Assembly (NCBI GenBank): GCA_036785375.1
Contig: JAWMAR010000217.1
Location: 3,038,001 to 3,102,000, forward strand
Length of the DNA stretch: 64,000 nt
Source: Leucoraja ocellata
Lineage: Eukaryota
Direction: 5' to 3'
Positions within the stretch are counted from its first letter, which is position 1; each line of letters begins with the position of its first letter. The notes below the pieces were generated by a model. The model had not been told where the DNA came from. It made no database searches and saw only the letters and a program-made list of their open reading frames with translations. The position numbers and the translations under genes are program-made. Positions 10,181 to 19,308 of this stretch are shown piece after piece.

Positions 10181-10382
10181 TCATATAATATAACCGTATA
10201 ACAATTACAGCACAGAAACAGGCCATCTCGACCCTTCTAGTCTGCGCCGAACACGTATTCTCCCCTAGTCCCATATACCTGCGCTCAGACCATAACCCTC
10301 CATTCCTTTCCCGTCCATATAACTATCCAATTTATTTTTAAATGATAAAAACAAACCTGCCTCCACCACCTTCACTGGAAGC

Positions 10383-13251
10383 TCATTCCACACAGCCACC
10401 ACTCTCTGAGTAAAGGTTCCCCCTCATGTTACCCCTAAACTTCTGTCCCTTAATTCTCAAGTCATGTCCCCTTGTTTGAATCTTCCCTACTCTCAGTGGG
10501 AAAAGCTTAACCACGCCAACTCTGTCTATCCCTCTCATCATTTTAAAGACCTCTATCAAGTCCCCCCTTAACCTTCTGCGCTCCAAAGAATAAAGCCCCA
10601 ACTTGTTCAACCTTTCTCTGTAACTTAGTTGCTGAAACCCAGGCAACATTCTAGTAAATCTCCTCTGTACTCTCTCTATTTTGATGACATCCTTCCTATA
10701 ATTAGGCGACCAAAATTGTACACCATACTCCAGAATTGGCCTCACCAATGCCTTGTACAATTTTAACATTACATCCCAACTTCTATACCCAATGCTCTGA
10801 TTTATAAAGGCCAGCACACCAAAAGCTTTCTTTACCACCCTATCTACATGAGATTCCACTTTCAGGGAACTGTGCACAGTTATTCCCAGATCCCTCTGTT
10901 CACCTGCATTCTTCAATTCCCTACCATTTACCATGTACGTCCTATTTTGATTTGCCTGCCAAGATGTAGCACCTCACATTTATCAGCATTAAACCCCATC
11001 TGCCATCTTTCAGCCCACTCTTCCAACTGACATAAATCTCTCTGTAGACTTTGAAAATCTACTTCATTATCCACAACCCCACCTATCTTAGTATCATCTG
11101 CATACTTACTAATCCAATTTACCACACCATCATCCAGATCATTGATGTACATGACAAACAACAGTGGACCCAACACAGATCCCTGTGGCACCCCACTAGT
11201 CACTGGCCTCCAACCTGACAAACAACCATCCACCATTACTCTCTGGCATCTCCCATTCAGCCACTGTTGAATCCATCTTGCTACTCCACCATTAATACCC
11301 AACAATTGAACCTTCTTAACCAACCTTCCGCGAGGAACCTTGTCAAAGGCCATATTGAAGTCCATATATACAGCATCCACTGCTTTACCTTCATCAATTT
11401 CCCGAGTAACCTCTTCAAAAAATTCAAGAAGATTAGTCAAACATGACCTTCCAGGCACAAATCCATGTTGACTGTTCCTAATCAGACCCTGTTTATCCAG
11501 ATGCTTATATATATTATCTCTAAGTATCCTTTCCATTAATTTGCCCACCACTGACGTCAAACTAACAGGTCTATAATTGCTAGGTTTACTCTTAGACCCC
11601 TTTTTAAACAATGGAACACCATGTGCAGTACACCAATCCTCCGGCACCATTCCCGTTTCAAATGACATCTGAAATATTTCTGTCATAGCCCCTGCTATTT
11701 CTACACTAACTTCCCTCAATGTCCTAGGGAATATCCTGTCCGGACCTGGAGACTTATCCACTTTTATATTTCTCAAAAGTGTCAGTACTTCCTCTTCTTT
11801 GAATCTCATAGTTTCCATAGCTACTCTACTTGTTTCCCTTACCTCACATTATTCATTATCCTTCTCCTTGGTGAATACCGAAGAAAAGAAATTGTTCAAT
11901 ATCTCCCCCATCTCTTTTGGCTCTGCAGATAGCTGTCCACTCTGACTCTCTAATGGACCAATTTTATCCCTCGTTATCCTTTTGCTATTAATATAGCTGT
12001 AGAAACCCTTTGGATTTACTTTCACCTTACTTGCCAAAGCAACCTCATATCTTCTTTTAGCTTTTCTAATTTCTTTCCTAAGATTCTTTTTACATTCTTT
12101 ATACTCCTCAAGCACCTCATTTACTCCATGCTGCCTATAATTATTGTAGATCTCTCTCTTTTTCCGAACCGTGTCCAATTTCCCTTGAAAACCATGGCTC
12201 TTTCCAATTTTTACTATTTCCTTTAGACCGAACAGGGACATAAAGATTCTGTACTCTTAAAATGTCACCTTTAAATGTCCTCCATTTCTCTTCCATATCT
12301 TTCCCATAAAACAAACTGTCCCAATTTACTCATTTTAAATCCTTTCGCATCTCCTCAAAGTTAGCCTTTCTCCAATCAAAAATCTCAACCCTAGGTCCAG
12401 TTCTGACCCTCTCCATAATTATATTGAAACTAATGGTATTGTGATCACTAGTCCCGAACTGTTCCCCAACGCATACTTCTGCTACCTGACCCGTCTCATT
12501 TCCTAACAGGAGGTCCAGCACCGCACCTTCTCTAGTAGGTACTTCTATGTATTGCTGCAAAAAACTATCCTGCACACATTTTACAAACTCCAAATATCCT
12601 GCACACATTTTACAACTTACAAACCCCATCCAGCCCATTTACAAAATGTGTTTCCCAGTCTATGTGTGGAAAATTGATATCTCCCACAATCACTACCTTG
12701 TGCTTACTACGAATATCTGCAATCTCCTTACATATTTGATCTTCCAATTCTCGCTCCCCATTTGGCGGTCTATAATACACCCCTATAAGTGTTGCTACCC
12801 CTTTACCATTTCTCAGTTCCACCCAAATAGCCTCCCTAGATGAGCCCTCTAATCTATCCTGCCAAAGCACTGCTGTAATATCTTCCCTGATAAGCAATGC
12901 AACACCTCCACCTCTTGCCCCTCCAATTCTATCACACCTGAAGCAACGAAATCCTGGAATATTTAGTTTCCAATCACAGCCCTCCTGCAACCATGTTTCA
13001 CTGATCGCCACAACATCATACTTCCAGGTGTCAATCCAGGCTCCAAGTTCATCCACATTTCTTACAATGCTCCTAGCATTAAAATATACACATTTAAGAA
13101 ACCCACCCTCTCTTATTCTCTGTTTATTGTCTTTTTCTTCTCTCTCCCCTACATTTTGGGTCAGAGTGCTACCATTCTCTACCTCCTGCCTTGCACACTG
13201 ACTGCTAGCTTTCCCAATTTGAGTCCCTCCCCCCAACCATACTAGTTTAAA
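10383..13251 (-). pseudogene. CR1 family B ORF2 (APE endonuclease-RT), frameshifted
   Basis: Split across ORFs 12610-13410, 12330-12638, 11849-12241, 10928-11818 and 10383-10934; a small tandem duplication lies near 12566-12617. Confidence 0.9.
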
Positions 13252-14177
13252 GTCTCCCCAGTAGCCTTTGCAAATCTCCCCGACAGGATATTGGTCCCCC
13301 TCGAGTTCAAGTGCAACCCGTCCTTTCTGTACAGGTCGCACCTTCCCCAAAAGAGGTCCCAATGATCCAGAAACTTGAATCCATACCCACTGCACCAGTC
13401 CCTCATCCACTCATTTATCCTCCACCTCGCTCCATTCCTACTCTCACTGTCGCGTGGCACAGGCAGTAATCCTGAGATTGTTACCTTTGCAGTCCTTCTC
13501 CTTAACTCTCTACCTAACTCCCTAAATTCTTCTTTCAGGACCTCTTCTCTTTTTTTACCTATGTCGTTGGTACCTATATGTACCACATCCTCAGGCTCCT
13601 CTCCCTCCCATTTCAGGATTTCTTGGACACGTTCAGACACATCCCTGACCCTGGCACCAGGGAGGCAAACTACCATCCGGGTCTCCTGTCTGCGTCCACA
13701 GAATCGCCTATCCGACCCCCTGACTATAGAGTCCCCTATTACAATCGCCCTCCTCTTCTTTTCCTTACCCTTCTGAGCAACAGGACCGGTCTTTGTGCCA
13801 GAGGCCTGGCCGCTGTCGCTGCCCCCAGATAGGCTGTCTCCCCCACCCTTACTCAAACATGAGTACTTATTTTCAAGGTGTACAGCCACCGGGGTACTCA
13901 CCAGTCCCTGCCTCTGCCCATTGCCCTTCCTAACTGTGACCCAGTTTTCTGTCTCCCGTGGTCTTGGAGTGACCACCTCCCTGTAACTCCTTTCCATGAC
14001 CTCCTCGCTCTCCCTGAGCAGACAGAGGTCATCGAGTTGCTGTTCCAGGTTCCTGACACGGTCCCTTAAGAGCCCCATCTCGACGCACCTGGCGCAGATG
14101 TGGACGTCTGGAAGGCACTCAGACTCCATGACCTCCCACATCTGATATCCAGAACAGTAAACTGCCCTGGCCCTCAT
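13242..14177 (-). CDS. CR1 ORF1p (zinc-finger/coiled-coil plus SGNH/GDSL esterase), 311 aa, uninterrupted
   Basis: MRARAVYCSGY...CARC, coiled coil, GDSIVR, HIGTND and DGLHLN motifs. Confidence 0.85.
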   Translation of the reverse strand: MRARAVYCSGYQMWEVMESECLPDVHICARCVEMGLLRDRVRNLEQQLDDLCLLRESEEVMERSYREVVTPRPRETENWVTVRKGNGQRQGLVSTPVAVHLENKYSCLSKGGGDSLSGGSDSGQASGTKTGPVAQKGKEKKRRAIVIGDSIVRGSDRRFCGRRQETRMVVCLPGARVRDVSERVQEILKWEGEEPEDVVHIGTNDIGKKREEVLKEEFRELGRELRRRTAKVTISGLLPVPRDSESRNGARWRINEWMRDWCSGYGFKFLDHWDLFWGRCDLYRKDGLHLNSRGTNILSGRFAKATGETLN

Positions 14178-14711
14178 TCTCCCCCTTATCCTGAACACAA
14201 TACAAAGCCTTACCCGGGATACAAGCCAATCAGCTGCTTCCTCTAGTCCGTTCGACCAATCAGAGGCTTCCACCAGCCCCCTTAATTTGAAGTGTGATCT
14301 GCGAATGGAATGTTGCAGAATTTGGCTCCTCCCTCTGTAACAGCTCCTGGGCCTCTGTTGAAACAAGCCCCGCGATGGGTTTTTGAACTCACCACACGGA
14401 CGTCGCTCCTCCCTCTGTAACGGCTCCTGGGCCTTAACTCCCAGAATCCTTAACTCCCAGAATCCTTAACCTGAAAGCAGAAATGTAAACCCGGGGTTGC
14501 ACCCAATCAGCTGCTTCCTCTGGGCCTCTTCCACCAAGCAGAGGCTTCCACCAGACTCCTTCTCTGGAAGCGAGATGGAACGTTGCAGATTTGGGTAACT
14601 CCTCCTCGCACCAACGGCTCCCCGGGCCTCTGTAGAAGCAAGCCCCGCACTGTTTTTATACTCACAGCTCCAGGTAACTCCTCCTCTCACCAAAGGCTCC
14701 CCGGGCCTCTC

Positions 14712-15066
14712 ATGAACTGTACACTGCAAGGGCCAGGAAGCGAGCGGGTAAGATCATCTCTGACCCCTCTCAGCCTGATCACAAACTCTTTAAAGCACTT
14801 CACTCTGGAAGGAGATTCCAGACTGTCAAAGCCGCCACAGCCAGACATAAAAACAGACAAGCAGTAGCTCTACTCAATAACCAAAAATCTGTAGCCTCCT
14901 TTTGCTCTGGTCTTTTATTTCATTCACATGTTTAAATTATAATGTTTTTTCTTAATGTTTTATTCTTAATTGTTTACTGTATGTCGTGTTGTTACTTGCG
15001 AGTGGAGCACCAAGGCAAATTACTTGTATGTATACATACTTGGCCAATAAACTTATTCATTCAATT
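14712..15066 (+). mobile_element. Rex1/Babar-type LINE 3' fragment
   Basis: ELYTARARKRAGKIISDPSQP...SGRRFQTVKAATARHKN, then 3' UTR with aataaacttattcattca. Confidence 0.75.
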
Positions 15067-15358: not shown

Positions 15359-18300
15359 GCACAGATTTACTAGAATGTTGCCTGGGTTTCAGCAACTAAG
15401 TTACAGAGAAAGGTTGAATAAGTTAGGGCTTTATTCTTTGGAGCGCAGAAGTTTAAGGGGGGACTTGATAGAGGTTTTTAAAATAGAAACATAGAAACAT
15501 AGAAATTAGGTGCAGGAGTAGGCCATTCGGCCCTTCGAGCCTGCACCGCCATTCAATATGATCATGGCTGATCATCCAACTCAGTATCCCGTACCTGCCT
15601 TTCCTCCATACCCCCTGATCCCCTTAGCCACAAGGGCCACATCTAACTCCCTCTTAAATATAGCCAATGAACTGGCCTCAACTACCCTCTGTGGCAGAGA
15701 GTTCCAGAGATTCACCACTCTCTGTGTGAAAAAAGTTCTTCTCATCTCGGTTTTAAAGGATTTCCCCTTTATCCTTAAGCTGTGACCCCTTGTCCTGGAC
15801 TTCCCTAACATCGGGAACAATCTTCCTGCATCTAGCCTGTCCAACCCCTTAAGAATTTTGTAAGTTTCTATAAGATCCCCTCTCAATCTTCTAAATTCTA
15901 GAGAGTATAAACCAAGTCTATCCAGTCTTTCTTCATAAGACAGTCCTGACATCCCAGGAATCAGTCTGGTGAACCGTCTCTGCACTCCCTCTATGGCAAT
16001 AATGTCCTTCCTCAGATTTGGAGACCAAAACTGTACGCAATACTCCAGGTGTGGTCTCACCAAGACCCTGTACAACTGCAGTAGAACCTCTCTGCTCCTA
16101 TACTCAAATCCTTTTGCAATGAAAGCTAACATACCATTCGCTTTCTTTACTGCCTGCTGCACCTGCATGCCTACCTTCAATGACTGGTTTACCATGACAC
16201 CCAGGTCTCGCTGCATCTCCCCCTTTCCCAATCGGCCACCATTTAGATAATAGTCTGCTTTCCTGTTTTTGCCACCAAAATGGATAACCTCACATTTATC
16301 CACATTATACTGCATCTGCCAAACATTTGCCCACTCACCCAGCCTATCCAAGTCACCCTGCAGTCTCCTAGCATCCTCCTCACAGCTAACACTGCCCCCC
16401 AGCTTAGTGTCATCCGCAAACTTGGAGATATTGCCTTCAATTCCCTCATCCAGATCATTAATATATATTGTAAATAGCTGGGGTCCCAGTACTGAGCCTT
16501 GGGGTACCCCACTAGTCACTGCCTGCCATTGTGAAAAGGACCCGTTTACTCCTACTCTTTGCTTCCTGTTTGCCAGCCAGTTCTCTATCCACATCAATAC
16601 TGAACCCCCAATGCCATGTGCTTTAAGTTTGTATACTAATCTCTTATGTGGGACCTTGTCGAAAGCCTTCTGGAAGTCCAGATACACCACATCCACTGGT
16701 TCTCCCCTATCCACGCTACTAGTTACATCCTCGAAAAATTCTATAAGATTCGTCAGACATGATTTACCTTTCGTAAATCCATGCTGACTTTGTCCAATGA
16801 TTTCACCACTTTCCAAATGTGCTGCTATCCCATCTTTAATAACTGACTCTAGCAGTTTCCCCACTACCGATGTTAGACTAACTGGTCTGTAATTCCCCAT
16901 TTTCTCTCTCCCTCCCTTCTTAAAAAGTGGGGTTACGTTTGCTACCCGCCAATCTTCAGGAACTACTCCAGAATCTAAAGAGTTTTGAAAGATTATTACT
17001 AATGCATCCACTATTTCTGGAGCTACTTCCTTAAGTACTCTGGGATGCAGCCTATCTGGCCCTGGGGATTTATCGGCCTTTAATCCATTCAATTTACCCA
17101 AAACCACTTCCCGGCTAACCTGGATTTCACTCAATTCCTCCAACTCCTTTGACCCGCGGTCCCCTGCTATTTCCGGCAAATTATTTATGTCTTCCTTAGT
17201 GAAGACGGAACCAAAGTAGTTATTCAATCAGTCCGCCATATCCTTGTTCCCCATGATCAACTCACCTGTTTCTGACTGCAAGGGACCTACATTTGTTTTA
17301 ACTAATCTCTTTCTTTTCACATATCTATAAAAACTTTTTATCAGTTTTTATGTTCCCTGCCAGTTTTCTTTCATAATCTATTTTCCCTTTCCTAATTAAG
17401 CCCTTTGTCCTCCTCTGCTGGTCTTTGAATTTCTCCCAGTCCTCCGGTATGCTGCTTTTTCTGGCTAATTTGTACGCATCAACCTTCGCTTTGATACTAT
17501 CCCTGATTTCCCTTGTTATCCATGGATGTACTACCTTCCCTGATTTATTCTTTTGCCAAACTGGGATGAACAATTTTTGTAGTTCATCCATGCAGTCTTT
17601 AAATGTCTTCCATTGCATATCCACCATCAACCCTTTTAGAATTAATTGCCAGTCAATCTTGGCCAATTCACGTCTCATACCCTCAAAGTTACCTTTCTTT
17701 AAGTTCAGAACCATTGTTTCTGAATTAACAATGTCACTCTCCATCCTAATGAAGAACTCAACCATATTATGGTCACTCTTGCCCAAGGGGGCAAGTACAA
17801 CAAGATTGCTAACTAACCCTTCCTCATTACTCAATACCCAGTCTAAAATAGCCTGCTCTCTCGTTGGTTCCTCTACATGTTGATTTAGATAACTATCCCG
17901 CATACATTCCAAGAAATCCTCTTCCTCAGCACCCCTGCCAATTTGATTCACCCAATCTATATGTTGATTGAAGTCACCCATTATAACCGTTTTGCCTTTG
18001 TCACACGCATTTCTAATTTCCTGTTTGATACCATCTCCAACTTCACTACTACTGTTAGGTGGCCTGTACACAACACCCACCAGCGTTTTCTGCCCCTTAG
18101 TGTTTTGCAGCTCTACCCATACCGATTCCACATCCTCCAAACTAATGTCCTTCCTTTCCATTGCATTAATCCCCTCTCTAATCAGTAACGCTACCCCACC
18201 TCCTTTTCCTTTCTGTCTATCCCTCCTGAATATTGAATATCCCTGGATGTTCAGCTCCCAGCCTTGGTCACCCTGGAGCCATGTCTCCGTGATCCCAACT

Positions 18301-19308
18301 ATATCATAGTCATTAATAGCTATCTGCACATTCAACTCATCCACCTTATTACGAATGCTCCTTGCATTGAGACACAAAGCCTTCAGGCTTGTTTTTACAA
18401 CACTCTTACCCCTTATACAATTATGTTGAAAAGTGGCCCTTTTTGATTTTTGCCCTGGTTTTGTCTGCCTGCCACTTTTACTTTTCACCTTGCTACCTAT
18501 TTCTTCTATCCTCATTTTACACCCTTCGGTCTCTACGCTCACACATTTAAGAAATCCTTTCCCTTTAACTCCATCCTCCACTGTCCCATACAACACCCCA
18601 CCCCCCTTATTCAGTTTAAAGCCACCCGTGTAGCAGTGGCAAACCTGCCTGCCAGAATGCTGGTCCCACACCTGTTAAGATGCAATCCGTCCCTTTTGTA
18701 CAGTTCCCCCTTACCCCAAAACAGATCCCAGTGATCTAAGAATCTAAATCCCTGCCCCGTGCACCAGTTCCTCAGCCACACGTTCAGGTCCCGTATCTCC
18801 CTGTTCCTGCTCTCGCCAGCACAGGGAACTGGAAGCAAACCGGAGATAACAACCCTGGAGGTCCTGCTTTTCAACATTTTTCCGAGCTCTCTAAAGTCAC
18901 GCTGCAGAATATTCATCCCCTTCTTTCCGACATTCCAAAATGATGAGAGGGATAGACAGAGTTGACGTGGAAAAGCTTTTCCCACTGAGAGTAGGGAAGT
19001 TTCAAACAAGGGGACATGACTTGAGAATTAAGGGACTGAAGTTTAGGGGTAACATGAGGGGGAACTTCTTTACTCAGAGAGTGTTGGCTGTGTGGAATGA
19101 GCTTCCAGTGAAGGTGGTGGAGGCAGGTTCATTTTTATCATTTAAAAATAAATTGGATAGTTATATGGATGGGAAGGGAATGGAGGGTTATGGTCTGAGC
19201 GCAGGTATTTGGGACTAGGGGAGATTATGTGTTCGGCACGGACTAGAAGGGTCGAGATGGCCTGTTTCCGTGCTGTAATTGTTATATGGTTATATGGTTA
19301 TATGGTTA
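15359..19308 (+). mobile_element. CR1 family B 3' fragment (15359-15484 joined to 18937-19308), host of a nested insertion
   Basis: RFTRMLPGFQQLSYRERLNKLG...EVFK|MMRGIDRV...; (ggttatat)3 tail. Confidence 0.9.
15485..18936 (-). mobile_element. Young 5'-truncated CR1 family A with near-intact ORF2
   Basis: ORF1 SGNH C-terminus 18611-18936, APE ORF 17325-18671, 548-aa RT ORF 15581-17227, (catagaaa)n tail; TSD aaaat at 15480-15484 and 18937-18941. Confidence 0.95.

Follow-up and report, generated by a model that had tools for sequence, protein, structure and literature searches.

A putative programmed -1 frameshift signal at the ORF1-ORF2 junction of CR1 retrotransposons

Background

How the second open reading frame (ORF2) of a CR1-type long interspersed nuclear element (LINE) can be translated when no start codon of its own precedes it is the question raised by a stretch of 64,000 nt of the Leucoraja ocellata genome (contig JAWMAR010000217.1, G000:C217:3038001-3102000), referred to here as the window. 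A copy of a CR1 family designated B is located on its minus strand at about 14712-10183. An earlier note, made from the letters of the window, had described this copy as a full-length CR1 with a canonical -1 frameshift signal at the ORF1-ORF2 junction. The description holds for the extent of the copy, which is that of a full-length element; its coding frames are broken, with a stop at 12612-12610. The CR1 label has been taken from the same note and fits the architecture of the element.

CR1 elements are abundant in reptiles and sharks. In passages of PMC2734521 they are described as the dominant repeat of birds, and reviews, as excerpted from PMC3708506, call it unclear how bicistronic LINE RNAs make ORF2. 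The coronavirus IBV (infectious bronchitis virus) uses U_UUA_AAC as its frameshift site, and sections of PMC5009743 describe the set of the shiftiest heptamers.

The signal at the end of ORF1

The family B copy in the window has an ORF1 that ends ACT TTA AAC TAG, with the heptamer TTTAAAC (U_UUA_AAC) in X_XXY_YYZ phase and a G-tract, G6-A-G3-N9-G3, beginning 10 nt past it (Table 1). The open -1 frame spans 13410-12610 on the minus strand; it reads FKLVWLGGG at the junction and continues without a Met to LKCVYFNARS at 13098-13069, in the APE endonuclease domain (PF03372, E 1e-11). The heptamer and its phase, the Met-less open -1 frame and the G-tract had all been claimed in the earlier note and are read as such in the window. 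TTTAAAC by itself is frequent, with 30 sites in the window, and the case therefore depends on conservation. An ATG lies one base past the ORF1 stop (13240-13238, minus strand) in families B and B2, where it opens an 11-codon frame in +1; it is absent from families A, C and D.

The window contains in addition a copy of a second family, A, with the same heptamer in the same place and phase, the two families sharing 52-59% amino-acid identity. The genome of 3.44 Gb has been scanned with an anchor pattern made of the LY..DGLHL codons, which is blind to the junction, and reversed-pattern controls were run alongside. The anchor matched 10,640 times (control 25). Leu/Phe-Asn codons stand at the expected ORF1 end in 8,540 of these copies and exact T TTA AAC in phase in 8,250, that is 8,250/10,640 of the anchor copies and 8,250/8,540 of the Leu/Phe-Asn copies (control 0). 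These counts are weighted by copy number, and a few families make up most of them, so that they measure prevalence and not selection. By junction sequence the loci fall into groups A, B, B2, C, D, E and F. A search of the skate genome for a family with G_GGA_AAC or A_AAA_AAC matched at 14 places (control 4), and none of these proved, on reading the listing, to be an intact family end.

Conservation of the heptamer beyond synonymous expectation

Selection has been assessed on natural copies rather than consensus sequences. Two sequence collections were scanned with a pattern in which Leu/Phe-Asn-stop is fixed and the synonymous positions are free, and eight records matched. Three of them are CR1-like, namely L094 and L096, which have an APE domain downstream, and L092, a record of just 257 bp that was placed here by likeness; T TTA AAC is present in all three. 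The other five (L091, L093, L095, L097 and L098) have no CR1 context and were left out of the lineage count; all five have non-slippery codons.

T-TTA-AAC is kept in six lineages: A, B, D, L094, L092 and L096. Four-fold degenerate third positions match in 8/38, 9/30, 10/28, 9/28, 7/24 and 6/25 cases in the pairs among A, B, D and L094 (21-36%), which places their synonymous sites near saturation. Among 20 columns with an invariant residue in six long representatives, the codon is kept in three, namely the Leu and the Asn at the terminus and a further Asn. In pooled codon usage TTA accounts for 48 of 267 Leu codons and AAC for 61 of 156 Asn codons, from which T TTA AAC is expected with a frequency of 0.007-0.043 per lineage and 1.4e-10 jointly for the six, or about 9e-9 by simple division when conditioned on B. 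The codon before the Leu is GCT, ACT, TCT, CAT, TTT or TAT (Ala, Thr, Ser, His, Phe, Tyr), ending in T in every case, and the stop that follows varies among TAA, TAG and TGA. The heptamer is conserved beyond synonymous expectation: saturated lineages agree in TTTAAAC, in its phase and in the -1 relation, and the Leu-Asn codons do not vary freely among families, as the earlier note had suggested should be checked.

The -1 frame and the start codon of ORF2

A readable linker, from the heptamer to the APE motif, is present in 7 of 12 representatives. The linkers comprise 82, 55, 53, 68, 64, 33 and 73 codons; their -1 frame is free of stops, and the other frames contain 1-16. Upstream of the heptamer the -1 frame is closed after 5 codons in C, D, E, F and L094, after 6 in L092 and after 2 in L096, and none of the 12 representatives has an ATG upstream in this frame. 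Frame retention was counted in 132 unique junctions of 192, partly chosen by heptamer or by identity to B, in copies having the heptamer and an APE motif within 400 nt. The -1 frame is held in 29/37 copies of A, 20/24 of B, 7/10 of B2, 4/4 of D and 1/8 of C, and also in L094 and L096. Four copies (L164, L163, L166 and L168) have a reading frame that runs from the heptamer without a break over 1,013 or 996 aa.

The start codons of family B are of particular relevance. In nine long-open B copies the first Met occurs at codons 12, 77, 187, 214, 243, 269 and 269, and is not found in 213 and 234 codons. In L040 and L051 the Met at codon 269 stands behind the APE motifs ETW (85), GDFN (190) and SDH (258). 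Three pairs compared between the Met-free APE region of B and that of B2 have a nonsynonymous divergence (dN) of 0.02-0.03 and a synonymous divergence (dS) of 0.13-0.20, the linker having dN 0.17-0.22 and dS 0.34-0.38. Family B thus lacks an AUG before the end of an endonuclease under purifying selection, its dN being far below its dS, from which the domain is predicted to be translated without an AUG of its own. In L094 and L096 the first Met lies inside the APE domain, at codons 44 and 115.

The principal alternative is termination-reinitiation in the manner of SART1 and L1, in which ORF2 would be started at a linker AUG or a non-AUG codon and the heptamer kept for another reason. SART1, with its UAAUG, and L1 resemble CR1 in having a bicistronic RNA, with reinitiation of ORF2 dependent on ORF1 translation (excerpts of PMC2881922 and PMC3708506), AUG-independent initiation is reported for L1 in part of PMC5009743, and AUGs do occur in the linkers of A, D and some B2 copies. 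CR1 differs in that no UAAUG-type stop-start, with an ORF2 AUG at or adjoining the ORF1 stop, is found in any of the 12 representatives, the nearest in-frame Met being at least at codon 10; ORF2 overlaps the end of ORF1 in -1, for which a fused rather than a separate product is predicted. The ATG just past the stop in B is in the wrong frame (+1), and reinitiation requires neither a fixed -1 relation, nor the synonymous invariance of T-TTA-AAC, nor the exchanges to Gly-Asn, Lys-Asn and Gly-Phe ends described below. We consider this alternative improbable.

The G-run downstream of the heptamer

A run of at least four G begins 8-11 nt past the heptamer in five of six lineages, the background frequency being 1-6% for a 4-nt window; the spacing looked for in a 3' stimulator is 5-9 nt. 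The earlier note had raised the possibility of a G-quadruplex as stimulator. Fold prediction gives two-tier quadruplexes for copies of B, E and F, and also a quadruplex for a single C copy whose G-runs are expanded; it gives none for A, B2, D, L092, L094, L096 or L080b, another copy of C. The quadruplex is not supported as a shared stimulator, since fold prediction lacks it in most families, and it is the G-run alone that the families have in common. The pause is favoured to arise from the adjacent stop together with a bound or transient G-run element. The L096 record has a second TTTAAAC (L096:851-845, minus strand), about 20 nt past the first, inside a predicted hairpin and in the ORF2 frame.

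RNA reads over the junction

Raw RNA reads from a related species, in which many copies are pooled and which may reflect passive intronic transcription, cover the junction. In a single-cell run they come mostly from the strand of the element (depth 3,500 vs 122 at 13242-13249). No indel at 5% or above and no skipping joint was found in the reads at the junction, which argues against splicing or transcript-level repair. No variant falls in 13242-13261 among the 40 of 53 rows listed; the flanks vary.

TTTAAA is a weak poly(A) hexamer and is TATA-like, and adapter invasion at G-runs is a known artefact. These points bear on a second alternative, that TTTAAA and the G-run are an RNA-processing or DNA signal (a weak poly(A) site, an internal promoter or a splice signal) giving a separate message for ORF1 or ORF2. 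In its favour, 5' ends bearing the template-switch adapter accumulate at 13271 and 13281 on the minus strand, 20-30 nt upstream of the heptamer, with 143-172 reads each in two single-cell libraries that belong to one study; they may be true 5' ends or adapter invasion at G-runs, the 13281 end being located at a GGGG run. A signal of this kind does not account for the phase of the codons, for linkers that are open in -1 or for the Gly-Asn and Lys-Asn variants, RNA depth is continuous over the junction with no end or joint listed, and an ORF2-only message in family B would still be without an AUG. It is regarded as very unlikely. Loose poly(T) ends are present at 13550 (minus strand; 328 and 278 reads) in an A-rich stretch within ORF1 and are likely due to internal priming.

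ORF1 homologs in other animals

ORF1 of the window copy encodes an SGNH esterase (PF13472, E 4e-14). It resembles the esterase-bearing ORF1p of ZfL2-1 (PDB 4C1B, E 5e-30; parts of PMC3905857), and its best named match is from Leucoraja erinacea (91%). The DGLHL motif is present in 85 of 120 listed homologs; 70 of the 85 end in Leu-Asn (LN), with exactly 26 residues in 61, and the named sources of LN-ending proteins are sharks, rays, coelacanth, frogs, turtles and squamates. From the 150 best representatives at 50% identity, 104 with the motif and a tail of 20-45 residues were retained and 46 dropped. The search profile was built on 23 LN-ending and 2 GN-ending proteins and is biased to those ends, KN and FF not being included. 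The 104 end in LN (48), GN (12), KN (3), internal KN (10), internal LN (3), FF/GF/FL-like sequences by a loose pattern (9) and other sequences (19). The Leu-Asn, Gly-Asn, Lys-Asn and Gly/Phe-Phe ends would match the four shiftiest heptamers. The ten internal-KN proteins suggest that an adjacent stop is not universal.

The residue before the end covaries with it. Residues with NNY codons only precede LN in 18 cases against 1, and NNR-only residues precede GN or KN in 10 cases against 0 (Fisher 5e-7, inflated by kinship). On a quick tree built without the tails, in which many forks are weak, nine changes of end state are needed; SGN neighbours SKN there, and QGN neighbours both FF/GF and LN. DNA for proteins ending in GN, KN or FF was not found in viral contigs, plasmids or phages. 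F-K-L occurs at the junction in naturally frame-fused copies, namely P0034 (stingray) and P0275 (a distant lineage), which run to APE, and P0146 (turtle-like). A search for fused forms among longer proteins gave one unrelated match and 11 ORF2-type proteins, none extending to the junction.

A third alternative, that Leu-Asn is a protein constraint on the esterase C-terminus with codons common by descent, could appeal to the final Asn of 68 of the 104 distant homologs, and is scarcely credible, being largely refuted by the saturated synonymous sites nearby and the codon-usage expectation: the Leu and the Asn both keep their codon as against 1 of 18 other invariant columns, the ZfL2-1 match leaves the last 7 residues of ORF1 uncovered, teleost homologs end otherwise, and the residues Leu, Gly and Lys are dissimilar and have nothing in common but XXA codons (chance 0.0035).

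Five esterase ORF1s (P0107, P0114, P0117, P0119 and P0120; two named from teleosts) have ends other than LN, GN or KN; they form a natural control group and may express ORF2 otherwise. CR1 ORF1 sequences are also filed under Pseudomonas aeruginosa and Protopolystoma (P0020 and P0076) and under a 257-bp Jeotgalibacillus contig (L092), and are probably host contamination.

Proposed mechanism and its weighing

The conserved heptamer, its phase, the -1 frame and the AUG-less family B support the gag-pol-like fusion put forward in the earlier note, and it is very probable, judged on these sequence features, that programmed -1 frameshifting yields an ORF1-ORF2 fusion in CR1. Some of the ribosomes ending ORF1 would slip back one base at the heptamer, by tandem slippage of tRNA-Leu and tRNA-Asn from UUA AAC to UUU AAA, and read through the variable linker into ORF2. 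The junction of the product would be Leu-Asn followed by a Leu of the -1 frame, and a minor fusion of about 1,300 aa with esterase, APE and reverse transcriptase (RT) domains would be made beside abundant ORF1p. The adjacent stop and the G-run 8-11 nt downstream may provide the pause, the G-run acting most likely by protein binding or an undiscovered RNA fold and not as a classical G-quadruplex. In families that have an AUG in the linker, reinitiation may operate too. More tentatively, and with the balance tilting slightly the other way, esterase-ORF1 CR1 elements across animals may make a Gag-Pol-like fusion by an ancient -1 cassette, swapped among the four shiftiest heptamers and in vertebrates driven by an unstructured G-run (protein-bound or an undescribed stimulator), with no pseudoknot.

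A number of observations weigh against frameshifting as set out here. The fusion is a predicted product, its translation being deduced from nucleotide and protein comparisons. The -1 frame of the window copy has, as the earlier note states, no Met on the way to the APE domain, and the longest Met-free copies of family B have none before the end of the conserved endonuclease; in-frame linker AUGs do occur in A (codon 36 in 27/27 open linkers), D (codon 39, 4/4) and B2 (codon 26, 5/7). Family C, represented by old copies with indels in the G-run, keeps the -1 frame in just one of eight, and counts of synonymous and nonsynonymous variants within families gave no sign of coding constraint in the linker, a comparison that is uninformative. 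L096 has no G-run and instead a hairpin from +10. No conserved stem or pseudoknot was found 3' of the heptamer, local folding giving z of -1.7 to +2.3 against shuffles, and the four Rfam matches are all under the gathering score. Duplex scans of 10 copies for pairing of the G-run with the 3' untranslated region (UTR) produced hits for D and, less strongly, for A; this pairing was rejected because C-rich stretches look paired, by eye, in local 3' stems and B is without a good partner. Lastly, 19 of the 104 distant homologs are outside every heptamer class, and the GN, KN and FF classes are known from protein alone, their heptamers being deduced.

Relation to known systems

The CR1 junction resembles those of retroviral gag-pol and coronavirus ORF1a/1b in that the upstream ORF closes with an in-phase X_XXY_YYZ heptamer belonging to the same group of shiftiest sites and the polymerase ORF lies in -1. 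It differs from them in belonging to a retrotransposon that lacks long terminal repeats (non-LTR), in having a G-run with no pseudoknot or stem found, and in the stop that abuts the heptamer in vertebrate families. A precedent among LINEs is stated in part of a review (PMC5911963), according to which the APE-type non-LTR elements TRE5-A and TRE3-A of Dictyostelium need a -1 frameshift for ORF2; these belong to another clade with another ORF1, whereas CR1 has a defined heptamer across vertebrate classes with apparent compensatory swaps.

No report of frameshifting in CR1 was found in the full-text literature covered, outside of which lie early CR1 papers, most subscription papers and repeat-library annotations; within that coverage the statement of the earlier note, that it is not established for CR1, stands. 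The term 'frameshift' is absent from the available portions of PMC3905857, the ZfL2-1 esterase paper, and 'CR1' from those of PMC5009743. There is a modest chance that early CR1 papers already remark on the overlap of the ORFs. Frameshifting itself is a known mechanism, and it is CR1 as its host for which no report was found.

Organisation of the CR1 copies

The features of the two copies in the window are listed in Table 1. ORF2 has the domain order APE then RT (PF03372, PF00078). A 31-nt stretch at 12593-12625 breaks ORF2 of the family B copy and is skipped in reads of relatives. The approximately 100-nt repeats of its 5' UTR (14712-14230, minus strand) carry CTGATTGG motifs, which are CCAAT-box-like. 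Copies of A, B, B2 and C have a short 3' UTR with terminal short tandem repeats and no poly(A). The 3' UTR of family D (L163, L166, L168 and L169) differs from those of A, B and C in being longer and having a C-rich/G-rich stem of its own.

Two loci, L200 and L201 (G000:C2:24712700-24714700), are chimeric, with a B-type ORF1 and linker fused to an A-type linker and APE at the common motif GFLKC; the chimeric linker of L201 is open for 110 codons in the -1 frame. The linker of family A includes a stretch resembling the start of the APE domain of B.

Table 1. CR1 features in the window (positions counted from its first letter)
Feature	Position	Strand	Remarks
5' UTR, family B	14178..14712	-	~100-nt tandem repeats; read directly; 5' end approximate
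ORF1, 311 aa, family B	13242..14177	-	N-terminal Cys motif region and SGNH esterase; terminal Leu-Asn-stop
Putative slippery heptamer U_UUA_AAC (TTTAAAC), family B	13245..13251	-	X_XXY_YYZ phase, ACT TTA AAC
ORF1 stop TAG	13242..13244	-	abuts heptamer; within CTA (Leu) of -1 frame
G-run element G6-A-G3-N9-G3	13213..13234	-	after 10-nt spacer; candidate stimulator
Met-free linker	13099..13251	-	-1 frame, heptamer to APE start
ORF2 body (APE, RT), family B	10265..13098	-	stops and frameshifts break frame; final TAG 10267-10265
3' UTR, family B	10183..10264	-	short tandem-repeat tail (GGTTATAT-like); end approximate
Family A copy, 5'-truncated	15480..18938	-	esterase remnant; -1 frame open 18674-17325 into APE; RT frame 17227-15581
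Heptamer and TGA, family A	18611..18620	-	heptamer at 18620-18614; G6-T-G4 from 18606

Implications

If CR1 does make ORF2 by frameshifting, LINEs would have a second, retrovirus-like solution for the expression of this frame, which would set the ratio of ORF1p to ORF2p. The esterase and the multimerising domains of ORF1 would be tied to the RT. Annotations of CR1 ORF2 that begin at the first AUG would be truncated, and in family B they would lose the whole endonuclease. The G-run may represent a new kind of frameshift stimulator.

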